A stretch of DNA of 64,000 nucleotides. Origin: an uncultured Pseudomonadales bacterium (GTDB lineage Bacteria; Patescibacteriota; Microgenomatia; UBA1400; Chazhemtobacteraceae). The first letter of the stretch is position 1, and every line of letters starts with the position of its first letter. Position numbers and translations under genes: made by a program. Shown here piece by piece: positions 48,901 through 62,825 of the stretch. The stretch is taken from contig CAYQZQ010000001.1 in the NCBI GenBank assembly GCA_964422035.1, positions 515,025-579,024 of the forward strand, in the 5' to 3' direction. The notes below the pieces were generated by a model. It did not search any database. It saw nothing but the letters and a program-made list of their open reading frames with translations, and had not been told where the DNA came from.

Positions 48901-51036
48901 TTAAATTGGTTCTATAGTTATGTTAATCTTTTCAGCTCGTGGGGGCATGTATCTTCTTAGTATCGGCAAATTTGGAGATATGATTAGCTGACTTCGCTTA
49001 TAGCCGGCAATGTTTTCTAAAAGCCTCCTGGTTTCTCTTGCTGACATTTTTTTCATTTGTTCTTGATAGTCTGCAATAGGTACATCAGGTGTTAGTTGGG
49101 CTTCAATTTTGACATCCGCAGTGAGGGAGTTGTCTTGAGAGTTTAAAGCTATAAACTCGGTTGTTGTGTCTTCCAATCTTAATTTCCAACCAGGAGGAAT
49201 GTCATCTCTGATTTTATTTTTCAAAAGGTTAACCATGTCTTCGTCTTTATATGTAAGCAGGGTAAATTCAGCCTTTAGATTCAGACTCAAATTATCAGCA
49301 GGGTCTCCAGCCTCAACACTGTATTGAGCATCTGTAATTTCTGGACTTGATATAGGAACTGTGTTTTGCCCATCCTTTTGAGTCTTATTTAGTTTCTCCT
49401 TAGATTGACTGATAATCTCCTCAGTGACATTTTTTAACAATCTATCAAGATCCTCTTGGTTGGGAGATTTAACGGTTTCAGAATATCCCCCGGAAAAATC
49501 ATCATTTGCTTTAGCTAAAACTGATGTTTTAGGATATGTGTCAACACTTAACTCTGTTCCTGAACTAATATTTCCCTCTTCACCAACTTGTTCTGCTGTA
49601 ACTGATGTCGTGCTTTGACCAGGAACCAGAGTTGTAATTTCGCTTTCATCAGTTGAAGCAGTTTGTGAAGCAATTTCAACTTCCTCGTCTAGAGTGTACT
49701 CTATGTTATTGCTAGTAGCTAGGATGGCTCCTTTTTCAATAACCTTAGAAGAGTTTGTCTTGTTGTACAAAACAACTTGACCTTTTGCGGGATTTCCAAT
49801 TAAAGTTTCTCCTGTAGTAGAGATTTCTCCTTGGCCCTCTAGAGAAATTGATTGTTGGCCTGCCTTTAACGTGGAATTGCCACTCCCTTGATCTGAAATA
49901 TCTATAGTTAATCTTTTAGTAACTTTCTCTGGCTCTACAAAAACTTTTATATTTGCTGTTAAAAACTGCATGTAAATAATTAAGGTTCCTATTCCCATTA
50001 ACAATAAAATGATTAAGGGGGCAAGTATTTTCCAAGTTTTTGAAATATTTGTTTTAGGAAAAGAAAAGTTTACTGAAGGTCTTTTAAAATTTTTGATCTT
50101 ATTAACTAAAATAGATGAGTAAGTTTTTATGCCTTTTCTATCTTGGGTGTCTTTTATTTTTTTTACTTCATCATCAGGTTCACTTTCTTGGTCTTGGTGT
50201 GAAGACTTTGTAATATCGTCCGAGATAAAACTGTTCTGTTTGTGTTTTGTGTTAGATTTGTTTTTATCTTTTTTAATTTTTTTGTCGCTGATCTTTATCC
50301 CCATAGATTTTGCTGCTTCGATACCTCCCGCTAACGCAACTGATTGAATGGTTAATTGAGAATCTGGTTGCTCTACTTTAGGAAGGTGTATAAAGGGTAG
50401 TTTTTCTTGCCAGGGGTATGATGAAAGTTGCTGCTCAGCGTCTGACTCAGATCCATTAATTATTAATATGCGTGACGGTAGTTGTTTGACGTCAATTCTT
50501 GCCAACGCCTCTTCAACATCCTGACCCAGATCTTCACTTCTTCCCACCTCTTGCCTTCCTATGACACGGCCAAGTTTAATCACTACAACATTTACTTTTG
50601 TATCATTTAGTTCTAAGAGGATAAGGCTTGGAGGAATACCTTCACTGATTTTAAGTTGTTGAATAATGGCTTCTGTTATAACAACAAATCCTACAGCCTC
50701 AATTTCAAGCTTCTTTGTAATATCTTTAATTTTGGGCTGAATAGATAAGGCAATTTTTTTTCCTTTTACCCAAGCCTCTGGTAGTCCGAAAATTGCTTTA
50801 TCGGGTTCAGAACTTAAACCTTTCAATGCAGAACCTAAAGACTTGTCAACAGCTAGCAACAATGATTCGTCATCTCTCCAACTTTCAACTGAACCATAGT
50901 TGATAATCTTAGGTTGGTTGTCGACAATCTGCCAGACTGCAGTTTTTACCCTAGATTCTTGAATTTCAATTGCAAGAAACTTTTCGGGTGACATCTCGTC
51001 TTTGTTGTTCTTTTTTAGAATATTGTTTATTTCCAT
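48901..51036 (-). CDS. 711-aa bitopic membrane protein: cytoplasmic N-domain with weak FtsA/PilM actin-like resemblance, single TM near residue 330, large extracellular S/T/E-rich domain
   Basis: LAIEIQESRVKTAVWQIVDNQPKII and LILLELNDTKVNVVVIKLGRVIGRQEV resemble the phosphate-1/2 segments of actin-like ATPases (degenerate). TM WKILAPLIILLLMGIGTLIIYMQFL. No LPXTG motif. Confidence 0.35.
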   Translation of the reverse strand: MEINNILKKNNKDEMSPEKFLAIEIQESRVKTAVWQIVDNQPKIINYGSVESWRDDESLLLAVDKSLGSALKGLSSEPDKAIFGLPEAWVKGKKIALSIQPKIKDITKKLEIEAVGFVVITEAIIQQLKISEGIPPSLILLELNDTKVNVVVIKLGRVIGRQEVGRSEDLGQDVEEALARIDVKQLPSRILIINGSESDAEQQLSSYPWQEKLPFIHLPKVEQPDSQLTIQSVALAGGIEAAKSMGIKISDKKIKKDKNKSNTKHKQNSFISDDITKSSHQDQESEPDDEVKKIKDTQDRKGIKTYSSILVNKIKNFKRPSVNFSFPKTNISKTWKILAPLIILLLMGIGTLIIYMQFLTANIKVFVEPEKVTKRLTIDISDQGSGNSTLKAGQQSISLEGQGEISTTGETLIGNPAKGQVVLYNKTNSSKVIEKGAILATSNNIEYTLDEEVEIASQTASTDESEITTLVPGQSTTSVTAEQVGEEGNISSGTELSVDTYPKTSVLAKANDDFSGGYSETVKSPNQEDLDRLLKNVTEEIISQSKEKLNKTQKDGQNTVPISSPEITDAQYSVEAGDPADNLSLNLKAEFTLLTYKDEDMVNLLKNKIRDDIPPGWKLRLEDTTTEFIALNSQDNSLTADVKIEAQLTPDVPIADYQEQMKKMSARETRRLLENIAGYKRSQLIISPNLPILRRYMPPRAEKINITIEPI

Positions 51037-56385: not shown

Positions 56386-58044
56386 CTATGCTTCAACTAC
56401 AACAGGGATAATAAGTGGGTTTCTTTCTGTTTTTTGATAGATAAAGTTATCAAGACGATCTTGTATTTTATTTCGAATAAATCCCCAGTCAGTGACTTGG
56501 CCTTTGTGTTTTTCTAAGGCTTTTTTGACTTGATCTTTAATTTCATCGATAAGATCTTCAGACTCTTTGACATAGACAAATCCTCTGGAAACTATCTCGA
56601 TGTCTCCTGTAATCTGTCCTGTGCTGTGATCTACGGGGATGATGGCTACAACTATGCCCTCTTCAGACATTACTTGCCTGTCTCTAAGAACTACCTTACC
56701 CACATCGCCAATACCCAAGCCATCAACATAAATGTTTCTTAATCTTGTTGTATTACCAAGCTTAACTTGTCGGTCTTTTAAGATAATTTCTTGTCCATCT
56801 TTGGGTAAAAGAGTTTTATCTTCAGAGTAGCCTAGATCTTGTACCATCTTTTTGTAGGCGTATTGGTGTCTAATCTGTCCTCCAATTGGGAAGAAGTATT
56901 TAGGCTTGGTTAACCTGGCTAATAATTTTAGCTCACCTCTATAGCCGTGGCCTGAAACGTGCAGTTGGTTAGTTATATCGCTGTATATGACCTCAACACC
57001 TTGTCGAGTTAAGGTGTCAATTAAAGAGTAGACACCTGACTCATTCCCTGGAATAGCGTCTGATGAAATAACTACTTTGTCACCTTCTTTAAGTTTGACG
57101 TTTCTGTGCTCTCCTGCAGCGGCTCTTTGCATAGATGAACCTTCCTGTCCTTGAGATCCTGCAATCATTAAAGCGACTTGACTATCTTTAAAGTTTTTTA
57201 TTTTGTGACGATCGATTAACATGTTTTTAGGTATGTTGACATAACCTTCTTCTGCAGCAATTTTTAAGTTAGTTTCTACGCTGCGCCCAACTAGGGCAAT
57301 TTTACGCCCTGCAGAAGCGGCTGCCTCAATGGCCATGCCGAATCGAGCAACAGAAGAACTCATGGTGGTAACAATAAATTTCCCTTTGGTTGTTCTAAGT
57401 TCTTTTTGAAAGGTTTCTTTGATAAGTTTTTCGGGCTGAGTAAAGCCTGCTTTCTCGACGCGAAGACAGTCTGACAAGAGAAGATCAATTCCTGCACTAC
57501 CTACTTGAGCAATTTTATTGAGGTCTGGTGGTTTTCCATCAGGAGGAGTTAGATCAAATTTAAAGTCAGTACCGTGATACACGGTTCCGGCGGGTGTCTC
57601 GATAAGAAAATGTTTACAATCAGGAATCGAGTGGGTTACGTGGATGGGTGTTATGGAGAAGGGTCCAAGTTGGATTTTATTTTTTATAAGCTTAAATGGA
57701 TTATGTAATCCGTATTCTTGTACATTGTTTTTGGCTAGAGCAATAGTTAGTTGTGAACCATATATGGGAAGATCCTTTTCAAGTCTAGGTAAAACGTATG
57801 GCAGTCCACCCATGTGATCTTGATGACCATGAGTTAGAACAATGCCGTGCAGTTTTTTGTTTGATTTTTCTATGTACGATATGTCAGGGATAAGGACGTC
57901 TACTCCTAGCATGCTTTCCGTTGGGAAACCAATGCCGCAGTCTACGGCAATTTGATGTTCTCCATATTCATAGATGAACATGTTTTTGTTAACTTGACCA
58001 TTTCCACCTAGTGGAATGATTTTGAGTGATTTTGATGAATTCAT
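56386..58044 (-). CDS. rnj: Ribonuclease J (beta-CASP metallo-beta-lactamase)
   Basis: HGIVLTHGHQDHMGGLPYVL and the beta-CASP region; 552 aa. Confidence 0.85.
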   Translation of the reverse strand: MNSSKSLKIIPLGGNGQVNKNMFIYEYGEHQIAVDCGIGFPTESMLGVDVLIPDISYIEKSNKKLHGIVLTHGHQDHMGGLPYVLPRLEKDLPIYGSQLTIALAKNNVQEYGLHNPFKLIKNKIQLGPFSITPIHVTHSIPDCKHFLIETPAGTVYHGTDFKFDLTPPDGKPPDLNKIAQVGSAGIDLLLSDCLRVEKAGFTQPEKLIKETFQKELRTTKGKFIVTTMSSSVARFGMAIEAAASAGRKIALVGRSVETNLKIAAEEGYVNIPKNMLIDRHKIKNFKDSQVALMIAGSQGQEGSSMQRAAAGEHRNVKLKEGDKVVISSDAIPGNESGVYSLIDTLTRQGVEVIYSDITNQLHVSGHGYRGELKLLARLTKPKYFFPIGGQIRHQYAYKKMVQDLGYSEDKTLLPKDGQEIILKDRQVKLGNTTRLRNIYVDGLGIGDVGKVVLRDRQVMSEEGIVVAIIPVDHSTGQITGDIEIVSRGFVYVKESEDLIDEIKDQVKKALEKHKGQVTDWGFIRNKIQDRLDNFIYQKTERNPLIIPVVVEA

Positions 58045-58063: not shown

Positions 58064-59134
58064 TTAATTTTTTGGTAAAAAGTTTTGAAGATTTTGTTGA
58101 GTAATGTGCACAGATTCAGCCTTGTTTTCAACGATCATGCGCGCTGTTTTTCTAGCGATTCCCTGCAGGCTTCTCTTTAAGGTTCTTATTCCTGCGTCAT
58201 AGCCTAATGGGCGTACAATTTGCGGCCATAATTGGTCATCAATGGTTAATTGCTGACTAGTTAGACCTGCATCTTCTATTACTTGGGGGAACAGGTAGTC
58301 TTGAGCTATGTGCATTTTTTCCTCATCTGTATAAGAGGGCATTCTGATGGGCTCCAGCCTGTCCTGCACAGCAGTGGCAATATTGGTGGTATTGTTGCCG
58401 GTAGCAATGAAGATGATTTCAGAGAGATCAATTGGATAGTCTATGTAATGATCAATAAAATTAGAGTTTTGTTCCTGATCTAACAGTTCAACTAAAACTC
58501 CCATTATGTCATCTCGATTTTTTTCAGTTATTCTATCAATCTCATCTAGAAGAATAATCGAGTTCTTTGCCTGTGTTTGAGCTAAAGATTTAACGATATA
58601 TCCTGGCTCAGACTCTAGATGAAGGCTTGACTGCCCCCTTAGGTCTTTGGCTGAACCTAGCCCTCCAAAAGGTATACGCGCCATTGGCCTGTCTAAAGCT
58701 TCAGATAGGGCACGAGCAAAGGTTGTTTTTCCGGTTCCTACAAGACCCACCAAGAATATGGTGGGGGCCTTAGCTACGCCTTGATTGCGAGATAGGCGGA
58801 GCTTGAGAACCGACATATATTCAAGGATGCGGTCTTTTACATCTTGCATACCGTAATGATGCTTGTCCAAAGTTTGCTGTATTTTTGTAATATCAATTGG
58901 TTTTTGAACTCTTTTGTTCCAGGGCAGTTTTGTAATCCAGTCGATGTAATGACGGGCTGTCTCGTATTCTTTGCTATAGTAATCACTGTTTTCCATGCGC
59001 TGAAGGCGGTCTGTCATTCTTTTTGCTTTATTTTCGAGATCTGGGGGCAATGTAGTCTGCTCAATCTTTTGATTAAGATTGATAACATCTTGATTAGGCG
59101 ACTTGCTAGAAGGGTGGTTGGCAGGCTGATCCAT
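58064..59134 (-). CDS. Lon-type AAA+ ATPase module without N-domain or S16 protease domain
   Basis: YIDWITKLPWNKR, DHYGMQDVKDRILEYMSV, Walker A LVGLVGTGKTT, Walker B ILLDEIDRI, AGIRTLKRSLQGIARKTARMIV; all collinear with the Lon AAA+ module. The ORF stops right after the alpha-helical lid and no protease domain follows. Confidence 0.6.
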   Translation of the reverse strand: MDQPANHPSSKSPNQDVINLNQKIEQTTLPPDLENKAKRMTDRLQRMENSDYYSKEYETARHYIDWITKLPWNKRVQKPIDITKIQQTLDKHHYGMQDVKDRILEYMSVLKLRLSRNQGVAKAPTIFLVGLVGTGKTTFARALSEALDRPMARIPFGGLGSAKDLRGQSSLHLESEPGYIVKSLAQTQAKNSIILLDEIDRITEKNRDDIMGVLVELLDQEQNSNFIDHYIDYPIDLSEIIFIATGNNTTNIATAVQDRLEPIRMPSYTDEEKMHIAQDYLFPQVIEDAGLTSQQLTIDDQLWPQIVRPLGYDAGIRTLKRSLQGIARKTARMIVENKAESVHITQQNLQNFLPKN

Positions 59135-59151
59135 AGACTCAGTATAAACGG

Positions 59152-61284
59152 TTAGCGATGGTCTTGAAAGCGTTTCGCTCGTTTTGAAGAGGACTTGTCT
59201 TCTTTTTGCTTATCACTTTTCATTGTTAAGTTGATGCGATCCTTGTCATCAATTTCAGTTACCTTGACTTCAACTTTCTCCCCTTCTTTGACAACACTTC
59301 TAGGATCTTTTACAAACTCATCACTCATCTCAGACACATGAACTAATCCTTCTTGTCCGGGCAGTACTTCTACAAAAGCTCCGAAGTCAAGAATGTTTTT
59401 TACGGTGCCAGTATAAGTTTTACCAACCTCTACTTCAGCAGTTAGGTTTTCAACATATTCTTTGGCTTTTTCAACCTTTTTGGCATCAACGCCTGAAATA
59501 TTAACTAGTCCTTTTTCATCAGCATCTTCTACGTTAACTTCAACATCGAAGTCTTCTTGAATTTGTCGAATCATTTTTCCACCAGGCCCAATCACGGTGC
59601 CTATTTTTTTGGCGGGAATAACTAAGTTAACAACTCTAGGCGCGTACTGATTTATATCAGTACGAGGCTCGGACAGAGCTTTGTTCATTTCTTTAAGAAT
59701 GTGCAATCTGCCTTTTTTAGCATCTTGTAAAGCATCACCTAAGAATTTAGGGGTAACGTTTAGTTTTTTTACATCCATTTGAATTGCTGTAATACCATCT
59801 TGAGTTCCAGCTACTTTGAAGTCCATGTCTCCCATGAAATCTTCAACGCCAAGAATATCAGTAAGTAAAACAGTCTCATCATCTTCGCTAACAGCACCCA
59901 TGGCAATTCCTGCAACAGGTTTTTTAATAGGCACTCCAGCATCCATCAAGGAGAGAGATGAGCCGCAGACGGCTGCTTGTGAGGTCGAGCCGTTGGACGA
60001 CATTATCTCTGAGACAACCCTAATTGTGTAAGGGAAGTCATTTTCGTCAGGAATTACAGGCATCATAGCTCTTTCTGCTAATGAGCCGTGGCCGATTTCT
60101 CTTCGTGAGGGCCAAGCTAGACGACCTGATTCCCCGGTTGAAAACGGAGGCATGTTGTAATGATGAATATATCTTTTAGTCGATTCTCCTTCCATTGTTT
60201 CCATTAATTGTTCGTGAGCGGGGGAGGCTAAAGTTGTAATAGACAAAGCATGAGTTAGTCCGCGCTTGAACTGTACAGAGCCATGAGTTCTCGGTAGCAA
60301 ACCTGTTTCAATTTCAATGTTGCGAATATCTTGAGGCTTTCTACCATCTGGACGAAGTTGTTCTTTGACAATTTTTTGTCGAATACTGTTTTTAAGAAGT
60401 TTAAATAGAGTATTGTCGATTTCCTTTTTATCAAGATCTTCATGTTCTTGAGATATAGCTCTAACAACGTCTCCTATGCTTCTGCCTTTGTGAGTAGCCC
60501 ATTCAGTTGCTAATTTGTCAAAATCATCAACGTGTTTGTTAATCACTTCTTCAATTTCTGAGTCATCTTGCTCTGGTGAACTGAAAGAGATCTTTTCAGT
60601 ACCAACTTTATCAACAAGATCTTTTATGGCTGAAATTATTTTTTGATTTTCCTGATGGGCAAACTCTAAAGCTTCTGCTAGTTTTTCTTCACCGACCTCT
60701 TTGGCGCCGGCTTCTATCATGGTGAGAGATTCTTTGGTGCCACTGACGATTAGGTCAAGATCAGATTCTTTCATCTGCTTGTTGCTTGGATTTGATTGAA
60801 GCTCTCCGTCAACTATCCCCACACGAACTGCTCCGACAGGACCATTGAATGGGGTGGAAGCGATAGAAGCTGCTGCTGAAGCTGCAATTGCTGAAAGAAT
60901 TTCTGGCTCATTTTCACCATCCACTGATAGAGGAGTGATAATGATTTGAAGATCTCCTCGATAACTTTTGGGAAATACAGGTCGTAGTGTTCGATCTATT
61001 AAGCGAGCAGTCAAAAAGTCCTCATCAGATGGACGACCTTCTCTTTTAACAAAACGGGAAGACTTAATTATTCCTCCAGCATACAATTTAGGCCTGTAGT
61101 CTACTGTAAGAGGTAAAAAGTCTAGTCCTTCTTTGGGTGGATTATCGTTTAGTGTTGCTAGAACCAGTGTGTCTCCGCAAAGAGCTGTAACAGCTGCTGT
61201 TGCTTGGGGAGCAAACCGTCCCGTTTCTAGTTCAATAGTAATATCTCCCTTTAAGGAGATAGTGGTTTTTTTTATAGATGTCAT
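59152..61284 (-). CDS. pnp: Polynucleotide phosphorylase (start reassigned to MTSIKKTT)
   Basis: Two RNase PH domains plus C-terminal KH and S1 (GKTYTGTVKNILDFGAFVEV). Confidence 0.9.
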   Translation of the reverse strand: MTSIKKTTISLKGDITIELETGRFAPQATAAVTALCGDTLVLATLNDNPPKEGLDFLPLTVDYRPKLYAGGIIKSSRFVKREGRPSDEDFLTARLIDRTLRPVFPKSYRGDLQIIITPLSVDGENEPEILSAIAASAAASIASTPFNGPVGAVRVGIVDGELQSNPSNKQMKESDLDLIVSGTKESLTMIEAGAKEVGEEKLAEALEFAHQENQKIISAIKDLVDKVGTEKISFSSPEQDDSEIEEVINKHVDDFDKLATEWATHKGRSIGDVVRAISQEHEDLDKKEIDNTLFKLLKNSIRQKIVKEQLRPDGRKPQDIRNIEIETGLLPRTHGSVQFKRGLTHALSITTLASPAHEQLMETMEGESTKRYIHHYNMPPFSTGESGRLAWPSRREIGHGSLAERAMMPVIPDENDFPYTIRVVSEIMSSNGSTSQAAVCGSSLSLMDAGVPIKKPVAGIAMGAVSEDDETVLLTDILGVEDFMGDMDFKVAGTQDGITAIQMDVKKLNVTPKFLGDALQDAKKGRLHILKEMNKALSEPRTDINQYAPRVVNLVIPAKKIGTVIGPGGKMIRQIQEDFDVEVNVEDADEKGLVNISGVDAKKVEKAKEYVENLTAEVEVGKTYTGTVKNILDFGAFVEVLPGQEGLVHVSEMSDEFVKDPRSVVKEGEKVEVKVTEIDDKDRINLTMKSDKQKEDKSSSKRAKRFQDHR

Positions 61285-61397
61285 ATCTTTTTTGGAGAGA
61301 GATTCAAGTGGTTGAGAAGTCGGGGGTGGAAACATTTTATTTGCACTCCTGATTCCTCAACCAGATATTTGGGCTCCCTATGTAAATTTGATAATTA

Positions 61398-61865
61398 TTA
61401 TTTTAAAATTTCTTCTTTAATTTCTTGCAGGCCTTTTTTGCCGATACCATCGATTTCTAAAATCTCATCTTCAGAAAGCTTTGATAGCTTGTCAACAGTT
61501 ATATTTGCATTTTGAAGAGCGTTTTCGGTTCGTGTAGACAATTCTTTAAAATCATTAATTGATGATTTTTCTTGAGTTTCTGCGTTTGATTTGATTTTTG
61601 TTTGTCTGATATCAAGTTCTCTAACAAGATCCTGATATGCTTTTGGGTTTGATTGACCCAAGTAGTTAAGCAATCTGCGTCTTTTGCCAACTATTTTAAT
61701 CAAACCTCTTCGGGAATGGTTATCTTTAGGGTGTCCCTCAAGATGATCAGTTAAATCTCTTAGCTGGTAAGTAAGCAAGGCAATTTGGACCTGAGGAGAT
61801 CCGGTGTCTCCTTTGCTTGTAGCATAACTGTCGATAATTTCTTGTTTTCGTTTTTTGTCTAACAT
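61398..61865 (-). CDS. rpsO: 30S ribosomal protein S15 fused to a C-terminal RpoA-alpha-CTD-like HhH domain (start at MLDKKRKQ)
   Basis: S15 core GDTGSPQVQIALLTYQLRDLTDHLEGHPKDNHSRRGLIKIVGKRRRLLNYL, then ...[51 protein letters not shown]. Confidence 0.85.
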   Translation of the reverse strand: MLDKKRKQEIIDSYATSKGDTGSPQVQIALLTYQLRDLTDHLEGHPKDNHSRRGLIKIVGKRRRLLNYLGQSNPKAYQDLVRELDIRQTKIKSNAETQEKSSINDFKELSTRTENALQNANITVDKLSKLSEDEILEIDGIGKKGLQEIKEEILK

Positions 61866-61934
61866 AAATGGGTGTTGAAATCTCAACAAGACTGTATTTT
61901 AGCAGAAAAGGCTTGGAGAGTAAAAGATAAAAGG

Positions 61935-62825
61935 CTAATTGCGCTGTGAATCACTGTGATAAATTTTAGGTTTTTGCCAATCTGAAGGAACGTCTTCGTC
62001 TGAAAAATCAGATTTTTGTGTGGACAAATCGGGGTGTGGCTTAGGTTCTTGAAAAGAAGGCTGTTCTTCAAAAAAAGGAGGCTTATTAGAAGAGGTTAGC
62101 TGGTTAACTTGAGCATTATTTTCAAGTAAGTAAGCAGCGATTTTGAATGTTTGAGGAGTTATGTGAGGGGATTTAAATTGATCAGTATTATCGAGCATGC
62201 GTTGGTATAAGATGGTGGCAGTTGATTGAGAAATTTTCAATTTAAATTTTTTAAGGAGATAAGAGATTGCTTCGGAAATTCCGGTGCTACGAGCATTAAG
62301 GTCAAGTGTAGGAAATTCAAGTTCTTCATTGTCTTGATGGATATTGATAAGAGTAGATTTGTCGATGAATTCTTTTTCTTGGGAGTATAGTTTACCTAGT
62401 TCTGATAAAGATTTTATGCCAATAGTGATAACTAAGTCTGCCTGTGCCCCAGAAAACGAGTATTCTACCTGTTTGGGGTCAAGTGGTTGCCCTTCTTTGG
62501 CAGGCTTGATCATTAAGTTAAATACTTGTTTATCTTTATTAATATCATATGAAACATGGCCAACAGATTCTGCTTTGTATGGAAAAGAGATTATTAAATT
62601 TTGGTTGCCAACTTGTTGTTGAATCTCTTCCGCTCCCGGAAGTTGAGAGTCAATCTTTGAAGAACAACCAATTGTTGATTTTTTATCGGCCTTTTTTAAG
62701 CTTGAATGGAGGGCTAAGCCTGCTGCAATTAAGTCTGCACTTGGCTTTGGTGGTAGAAGCACTAAAACAGTTGAGGAAGATTTGAGCAGTTCTTGAAAAC
62801 TATCGACTTTATTTTGTCCAAACAT
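61935..62825 (-). CDS. DHH/DHHA1 phosphoesterase-like (NrnA-like) protein with degenerate catalytic motifs
   Basis: VLVLLPPKPSADLIAAGLALHSSLKK aligns to NrnA motif I-II but DxD is replaced by SAD. NIHQDN sits where DHH is expected. A conserved DHH-family gene is known next to infB-rbfA in other bacteria. Confidence 0.35.
   Translation of the reverse strand: MFGQNKVDSFQELLKSSSTVLVLLPPKPSADLIAAGLALHSSLKKADKKSTIGCSSKIDSQLPGAEEIQQQVGNQNLIISFPYKAESVGHVSYDINKDKQVFNLMIKPAKEGQPLDPKQVEYSFSGAQADLVITIGIKSLSELGKLYSQEKEFIDKSTLINIHQDNEELEFPTLDLNARSTGISEAISYLLKKFKLKISQSTATILYQRMLDNTDQFKSPHITPQTFKIAAYLLENNAQVNQLTSSNKPPFFEEQPSFQEPKPHPDLSTQKSDFSDEDVPSDWQKPKIYHSDSQRN

Follow-up and report, generated by a model that had tools for sequence, protein, structure and literature searches.

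What remains of Lon when only its ATPase is encoded, and what might such a protein do? In the 64-kb stretch of DNA analysed here (the window), a 356-aa open reading frame with an ATG start, lonAAA, lies between the genes for PNPase (pnp) and RNase J (rnj) and resembles only the central part of Lon (Table 1). Every Lon protease contains an A domain with a P domain after it (PMC9569914). An initial annotation had left two options for this gene, a decayed lon or a bona fide protease-less Lon-type ATPase serving as an unfoldase or chaperone, possibly together with another protease or with RNase J or PNPase.

Table 1. Features of lonAAA and its immediate neighbours, in window coordinates; 188/188 refers to sequences of the short family.
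Feature	Coordinates	Strand	Basis or remark
lonAAA gene, 356-aa standalone LonA-type AAA+ ATPase	58064..59134	(-)	stop codon 58064-58066
N-terminal three-helix bundle (residues 15-69), equivalent to LonA NTD-3H, with YIDW	58928..59092	(-)	AF2 helices 15-26, 31-46, 53-69
Walker A GLVGTGKTT (residues 130-138)	58721..58747	(-)	G, G, K, T invariant, 188/188
Pore loop 1 GQSSLHLESEPG (residues 167-178)	58601..58636	(-)	alignment with LonA
Walker B ILLDEID (residues 194-200)	58535..58555	(-)	D197, E198 188/188
Pore loop 2 region RITEKNRDD (residues 201-209)	58508..58534	(-)	extent as in EcLonA (PMC9569914)
Sensor-1 Asn247 (EcLon N473)	58394..58396	(-)	188/188; role from PMC9569914
Arg finger D258-R259 (EcLon R484)	58358..58363	(-)	188/188
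Lon-type lid, alpha subdomain, PF22667 (residues 288-340)	58115..58273	(-)	Pfam
Sensor-2 R317 in AGIRTLKR	58184-58192	(-)	R317 188/188
pnp (PNPase), upstream context	59152..61335	(-)	17-nt spacer
rnj (RNase J), downstream context	56386..58044	(-)	19-nt spacer, ATG at 58044

Pfam analysis of lonAAA identified an AAA domain (PF00004, residues 127-262) and the Lon_lid domain alone. Residues 16-343 correspond to positions 254-573 of the 795-position TIGR00763 'lon' model, with a score of 318.9 bits that falls below the curated equivalog cutoff of 608 bits because both ends of the model are missing; the score for NF008053 was 235 bits, against a cutoff of 891. The best matches among solved structures were all LonA proteins, from B. 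subtilis (3m6a, 1.8e-70), human (LONP1), M. taiwanensis and E. coli. Collinearity with LonA extends over residues ~254-580 of the latter, at 35-38% identity, and covers the three-helix bundle, the LonA-spaced AAA+ module and the Lon lid of a LonA-type A domain; the ORF ends three residues past the Lon alignment. An AF2 model (pLDDT 88.9) gave Foldseek TM-scores of 0.80-0.86 against LonA and LONP1 chains. The first reading of this ORF as the Lon AAA+ region only, with a YIDWITKLPW segment (residues 63-72), Walker motifs and an AGIRTLKR lid helix (residues 314-321), therefore agrees with Pfam, TIGR00763, the structure matches and the positions of the motifs.

The remaining parts of Lon were searched for across the 64-kb window. 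A tblastn search with the E. coli Lon P-domain (residues 581-784) gave no match, a six-frame regex search for the S16 catalytic motifs PKDGPSAG and GGxKEK found neither, and tblastn with E. coli Lon residues 1-310 detected no Lon N-domain outside lonAAA, its sole match (E. coli Lon residues 254-306) being part of the lonAAA ORF itself. The absence of both S16 and the Lon N-domain, as claimed initially, is thus borne out for the whole window. In comparison with LonA, lonAAA shares the three-helix bundle, AAA+ fold, spacing between Walker A and Walker B, Lon_lid, sensor-1, Arg finger and sensor-2, but lacks the defining LAN domain, the long coiled-coil helical region and the S16 Ser-Lys peptidase domain, and differs in sequence by a replaced pore-loop-1 motif, the loss of the pore-loop-2 aromatic residue and a change from GPPG to GLVG in Walker A. 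Near-identical boundaries were chosen for 6n2i, an engineered E. coli Lon AAA+ protein (344-aa chain, 338 residues modelled), in which chain residues 13-339 align to lonAAA residues 19-353 with a TM-score of 0.83/0.88. The natural protein is therefore essentially this laboratory construct, except that 6n2i is an artificial truncation with canonical pore loops, whereas lonAAA is a natural standalone protein in which the pore loops are altered.

A length below that of LonA and a TIGR00763 score under the cutoff could also be signs of a lon pseudogene in decay, or of a protease domain masked by a frameshift from sequencing or assembly. The initial annotation had proposed that relatives be inspected for the same truncated architecture, and this architecture recurs among them. 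From a search of 5.8 billion proteins, the best 120 matches were inspected: these are 329-375 aa in length, with one of 455 aa, and all feature AAA, most feature Lon_lid and none (0/120) features Lon_C. These 120 proteins come from Patescibacteria (for example, Collierbacteria and 'Patescibacteria group'), and database labels for lonAAA homologues include 'AAA family ATPase', 'Lon protease' and 'ATP-dependent Lon protease'. More than 170 homologues of 340-400 aa share the end point of lonAAA at 38-75% identity, while a search of 50%-identity representatives recovered further short forms, at identities down to 38%, some of which have low-complexity N- or C-terminal tails and none of which has a protease domain.

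A scan of GTDB species representatives revealed two well-separated groups, consisting of 57 Patescibacteria loci (38-57% identity) and 23 LonA loci (35-42%), the latter being full-length proteins from other phyla, one of which (L071) is cut by a contig end. The 57 loci are labelled Shapiro-, Ames-, Levy-, Woese-, Davies-, Gottesman-, Roizman-, Pace- and Nomurabacteria, WWE3 and Saccharibacteria, where some of the MAG labels are clearly wrong. All 57 ORFs stop 0-8 aa past the lid, and no match to an E. coli-like Lon N- or P-domain was found within ±10 kb of any of them, which amounts to about 0.95 Mb of scanned flanks. A P-domain match (52-65% identity) was obtained for every LonA control whose contig runs past the AAA+ module.

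This distribution bears directly on decay and artefact. A frameshift is implausible because the stop position is common to the relatives and rnj starts 19 nt on (not 20 nt, as first counted), and no remnant of an S16 domain was found in any frame of the window. That over 170 independent sequences, 38-75% identical, share this end point, and that the catalytic residues are invariant, further argues against either form of this explanation. The 'decayed lon' option falls in the same way, given that the truncation is shared by the best 120 homologues and the 57 loci and that the ATPase residues are invariant. The conservation data refute the pseudogene or artefact reading, to which we accord next to no probability.

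To place the short proteins relative to LonA, a neighbour-joining tree was constructed from 330 AAA+ columns. They formed a single clade with respect to 49 LonA proteins in 49 of 50 bootstraps, in a tree whose LonA sample is modest and contains no identified Patescibacteria LonA. Mean column entropies are equal (1.61 bits for the short family and 1.59 bits for LonA), which points to purifying selection on the short family that is as strong as on LonA. The protein from the window has the hallmarks of this family: its length lies within ~340-400 aa, it ends at the lid, it groups with the short clade and it carries the E/D-A/S-E-P-G pore-loop base as E174-S-E176-P-G. It is also closer to the short family (41-75% identity) than to LonA (about 40% or less). 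Judged by its sequence, lonAAA is an intact member of a widespread, conserved and monophyletic Patescibacteria family derived from LonA. The option of a bona fide protease-less Lon-type ATPase is therefore the one that stands, given the recurring architecture, the invariant catalytic residues and an overall conservation on a par with LonA.

The ATPase site is complete. Lys136, Asp197, Glu198, Asn247, Arg259 and Arg317 are each invariant in all 188 short-family sequences, which provides the residue set of a catalytically competent AAA+ protein of the HCLR clade: Walker A and B, sensor-1, a trans-acting Arg finger and sensor-2 (residue roles and the extent of EcLonA pore loop 2 follow PMC9569914). 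Walker A Lys and Walker B Asp are separated by 61 positions, the same as in LonA and EcLon, and the GPPG of LonA Walker A is GLVG in the short family. We infer that lonAAA hydrolyses ATP and oligomerises, since an invariant trans-acting Arg finger makes sense only in an oligomer, where it would complete active sites between subunits. LonC (Lon-like-Ms of Meiothermus taiwanensis) is a comparable derivative of Lon that does without one of Lon's two activities. The loss is the converse one, as LonC has kept its protease and has a degenerate, non-hydrolysing ATPase, whereas lonAAA has no protease but an intact ATPase site. PMC9569914 makes mention of the LonC subfamily.

The three-helix bundle has been retained as well. 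In Lon, this NTD-3H forms an axial entry above the pore (PMC7239648), and Tyr63 and Trp66 of lonAAA are equivalent to Lon Y294 and W297. Among 70 diverse short members, the Y294-equivalent is Tyr or Phe in every case (70/70) and the W297-equivalent is Trp in 58. At R306, K308, K310 and K311, which make up a DNA-binding patch in E. coli Lon, neither the short family nor LonA as a whole shows conservation, and these columns are therefore uninformative.

The pore loops are a different matter, as determined for 70 diverse, non-redundant short members, with the Tyr398 column also compared with 82 LonA proteins. Pore loop 1 reads RGHRRTY(I/V)G(S/A)(M/L)PG in LonA and RGQSSLHLESEPG in lonAAA, where the Tyr-aliphatic-Gly of LonA is replaced by His-Leu-Glu (H172, L173 and E174). 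Across the family, this shift is from RRTY(I/V)G to S(R/K)xxx(E/D). The Tyr398 column is Tyr in 82/82 LonA proteins, but in the short members it is Phe (13), His (12), Ser (9), Tyr (8), Asn (5) and others, such that only 21 of the 70 are aromatic and Ser, Asn, Arg, Glu, Asp and Gln are all accepted. It is the most variable column of pore loop 1, with an entropy of 3.39 bits (0.00 bits in LonA), and the mean entropy of the whole loop is 1.78 bits in the short family compared with 0.61 bits in LonA. Other columns have changed in a directed manner: Arg395 is replaced by Ser in 59/70 members, the motif Gly (G400) by Glu or Asp (E/D174), again in 59/70, and Met402 by Glu (E176) in 66/70, and the charge of the loop shifts from about +2 in LonA to -1 or -2. 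In pore loop 2, the aromatic residue at LonA position 432 is lost and RGDP becomes RADI as the family consensus. In Lon, Tyr398 and Ile399 intercalate with and grip the translocating substrate, and the I399A mutation impairs degradation but has little effect on the ATPase (PMC7239648). Because pore loop 1 is relaxed and these Lon residues grip the substrate, it is the very link between ATP hydrolysis and threading, as far as the alignment can indicate, that has been freed from constraint.

An intact ATPase site, together with a pore loop 1 that has lost its constraint and reversed its charge, leads us to favour, with somewhat better than even confidence, a role for lonAAA as an ATPase, ring-shaped or spiral, that acts on partner proteins by remodelling, holding or releasing them, with neither canonical processive threading nor degradation. 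This level of confidence applies to the reading as a whole, and its mechanistic detail is held with less. Relative to LonA, the family has lost the N-terminal substrate-recognition domain and the S16 peptidase while keeping the three-helix bundle and the AAA+ module. The subunits would assemble into an oligomer, ring or spiral in form, whose active sites lie between subunits, and would hydrolyse ATP, and the ATP cycle would drive the remodelling, holding or release of a partner protein at the axial face, where the three-helix bundle and the acidic pore loops lie, with no processive threading of polypeptide into a protease chamber. The protein is probably no longer a degradation machine. Several observations run counter to this proposal. 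About 30% of the diverse members retain Phe or Tyr at the pore-loop position, and the conserved LHL at His172 may still allow some gripping of substrate. When separated from the P-domain ring, AAA+ fragments of LonA are poor at forming oligomers. The neighbouring genes are mostly not those of chaperones, with groES-groEL adjacent at just six loci and divergently transcribed.

The same residues could instead belong to a canonical protease-independent unfoldase or disaggregase that threads its substrates in the manner of ClpB, or of ClpX alone, with His/Leu or other residues doing the work of Tyr. An intact ATPase machinery, as this would require, is present, and in the subgroup closest to lonAAA, His172 is flanked by Leu and the LHL(E) sequence is conserved. 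The equivalents of R396 and E458 (the latter as Asp), which support the pore loop in Lon, are also kept in the short family. Such a machine is nevertheless unlikely, given that no column varies more than that of the Tyr, which accepts polar and charged residues of both signs, and that the Gly of the aromatic-hydrophobic-Gly motif is acidic in 59/70 members. The description of lonAAA as an 'unfoldase' is doubtful for this reason, as the Tyr-aliphatic-Gly motif with which Lon grips its substrate (PMC7239648) has been lost and is now the most variable position of the family.

Degradation could also persist in trans, if the ATPase docked on a peptidase from another gene (ClpP, a standalone S16 domain or another) and fed it substrates. 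Separate ATPase and peptidase genes operate in ClpX/ClpP and HslU/HslV, which belong to the same HCLR clade, and the three-helix entry portal, the ATPase site and, in some members, an aromatic pore-loop residue have been kept. ClpX and HslU are likewise single-module ATPases with no fused peptidase, although lonAAA matches their models only weakly. They feature aromatic pore loops and dedicated docking elements, and are usually encoded beside their peptidase. In lonAAA and its loci, by contrast, we saw no aromatic pore-loop motif, docking elements or adjacent peptidase gene: the LonA alignment shows no obvious IGF/L-type docking loop insertion, constraint on the protein is weakest in pore loop 1, the pore-loop-2 aromatic residue has gone too, no S16 domain is encoded in the 64-kb window or in the approximately 0.95 Mb of flanks, and no protease partner gene was found within ±10 kb at any of the 57 loci. 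Saccharibacteria offer one fully annotated and genetically tractable genome, that of S. epibionticum, which encodes ClpP, a ClpC-like ATPase and FtsH (PMC10633639). Its only match to Lon_C (PF05362) is a weak one in ComM, although the genome apparently also lacks lonAAA, as no Lon-AAA-like entry was found in its annotation or Tn-seq data (PMC10633639). A split Lon is therefore improbable in our judgement. Because the gene is absent from S. epibionticum, the Tn-seq data provide no essentiality or fitness value for the lonAAA family. We found no paper that describes a Lon without its protease or that discusses Lon in the CPR.

The genomic context was then considered as a guide to function. The gene order in the window is infB-x-rpsO-pnp-lonAAA-rnj-ftsK-HTH-...-alaS. 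No terminator-like site is present in either of the spacers that separate lonAAA from pnp and rnj, and these three genes are very probably co-transcribed here, with lonAAA as a housekeeping gene. Close relatives have the same block with udg or an unrelated reverse-strand gene between lonAAA and rnj. Across the 57 loci, rnj lies downstream of lonAAA at 41 of 52 informative loci, pnp upstream at 33/52 and udg downstream at 20/52, while both pnp and rnj flank the gene at 30 of 47 informative loci. For two distant members, whose contigs are short, the next gene is rnj or an overlapping udg. About 10 loci have another context, which includes glycosyltransferases, an ABC-type ATPase, a TraG-like gene or groES-groEL, and at three of the six loci where lonAAA diverges from groES-groEL, an RNaseH-like gene is on the opposite side. 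Most neighbours of lonAAA are genes for RNA decay, DNA repair or cell division. The (pnp)-lonAAA-(udg)-rnj-ftsK association is thus frequent and old, although neither exclusive nor universal, and it is compatible with inherited housekeeping synteny.

This context is the basis for considering lonAAA as an accessory ATPase of an RNA degradosome that remodels or regulates RNase J, PNPase or both, or their RNP substrates. Its position between pnp and rnj in the source genome, with spacers of 17 and 19 nt, fits such a role, as does the retention of rnj and pnp as neighbours in lineages whose lonAAA proteins have diverged to about 40% identity. However, the rpsO-pnp...rnj-ftsK arrangement resembles inherited housekeeping synteny, lonAAA is often split from rnj by udg or unrelated genes, about 10 loci lie in quite different surroundings (groESL, the RNaseH-like gene or glycosyltransferases), and the conserved acidic pore residues speak against passage of RNA through the pore. 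In addition, S. epibionticum has a pnp-hypothetical-rnj-ftsK block without lonAAA (PMC10633639). We therefore regard a degradosome ATPase as hardly probable. The link to RNase J and PNPase that the initial annotation suggested holds as a frequent association, but not as a universal one; udg or other genes often intervene, so that the link is no more than suggestive. A combined version, in which a non-proteolytic, non-threading motor with an acidic pore is co-expressed with RNase J and PNPase and serves as the ATP-driven remodelling subunit of a minimal machine for RNA decay or RNP turnover, possibly in Lon-free genomes, would be a long shot.

Two further candidates were rejected. Control of lonAAA by heat shock (HrcA/CIRCE) was considered, but no CIRCE-like element (≤4 mismatches) was found in the window, next to related lonAAA genes or in the divergent spacers between groES and lonAAA. 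A few CIRCE-like matches do occur elsewhere, far from lonAAA. A role as an anti-phage defence ATPase was also dismissed: PADLOC matches (IetA, PDC-M37B and others) were generic to the AAA core, at ≤39 bits, and the context is a housekeeping one.

Collectively, the lonAAA family is real and conserved, and apparently unstudied, and the function that we propose for it is a hypothesis drawn from its residues and gene context. Lon is classed as a fused ATPase-protease (PMC9569914), a definition that is contradicted by a clade consisting of the motor only. In one of the largest bacterial radiations, the Lon ATPase has probably been put to a use other than proteolysis, and the family constitutes a natural experiment in the abilities of a Lon AAA+ ring that has no protease. 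Recognition of these proteins corrects a widespread mis-annotation in the CPR and affects the reconstruction of proteostasis in minimal CPR genomes, where 'Lon protease' labels overstate proteolytic capacity.

Among the proteins matched by the product of lonAAA, the standalone LonA-type AAA+ ATPase gene, some are very long (for example 1675 aa): P0121 and similar representatives have a single S16 domain preceded by Lon-type AAA+ modules in tandem, from two to four of them. P0121 itself features three Lon-type AAA+ modules, and the pore loop of every one is aromatic (SRAYWVGS, for instance). Against the lonAAA query, these tandem-module proteins outscore single-module Lon. The homologue P0031 (455 aa) continues beyond the normal end (...NIKEFF) into a C-terminal extension of approximately 100 aa of unrelated Gly/Arg/Ala-rich sequence. 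This is the single such case among the top 120 lonAAA homologues, and the extension is probably due to contig chimerism or loss of the stop codon.

Six Patescibacteria loci that are more distantly related (L025, L036, L044, L050, L051 and L057) carry groES-groEL adjacent to and divergent from lonAAA, and a conserved promoter-like motif, TTTGTCAA ... TGCTAA, lies directly 5' of lonAAA; the region of note in these loci spans ∼100–250 nt upstream of the gene. No CIRCE element was found in any of the six. Three of them (L036, L044 and L057) also feature a convergent RNaseH-like gene (PF04308) downstream. A typical Patescibacteria gene order and the CPR-specific lonAAA also occur in many metagenome-assembled records that bear the title 'uncultured Gammaproteobacteria' or 'uncultured Pseudomonadales', as well as in a single record under the title 'Candidatus Methanoperedens'. 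Such titles, which look like mislabels or mis-binned contigs, are attached to L009, L017–L019, L021, L022, L025–L034 and other loci, L030 included.

Three further genes of the window have features of their own.

Coordinates of three further genes in the window
Gene product	Window position	Strand	Feature
711-aa protein	48901-51036	-	weak Baseplate_J-like match, PF04865, 4.3e-7
Ribosomal protein S15	61398-61889	-	PF00312 at residues 15-95
296-aa protein	61935-62825	-	flanked by infB and rpsO

The PF04865 hit is the sole Pfam match of the 711-aa protein. A gene of similar size (720–734 aa, no Pfam match on record) follows alaS in the related loci L001 and L003, which suggests that the 711-aa gene is a conserved part of the chromosome and not of a prophage. 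The 296-aa protein, which has no Pfam match, is encoded in the usual bacterial place of rbfA and truB; the position of its gene is kept in most related loci, and its sequence is weakly conserved (23–38% identity). In the neighbouring S15 protein, an RNA-polymerase alpha-CTD-like helix-hairpin-helix domain (PF03118, E 1.2e-9) occupies C-terminal residues 108–160. The S15 of the window, with its added alpha-CTD-like domain, appears to be a fusion protein. The S15 proteins of the relatives L001 and L003 are only 95–96 aa long, and L001 carries the alpha-CTD-like domain on NusA, not on S15.
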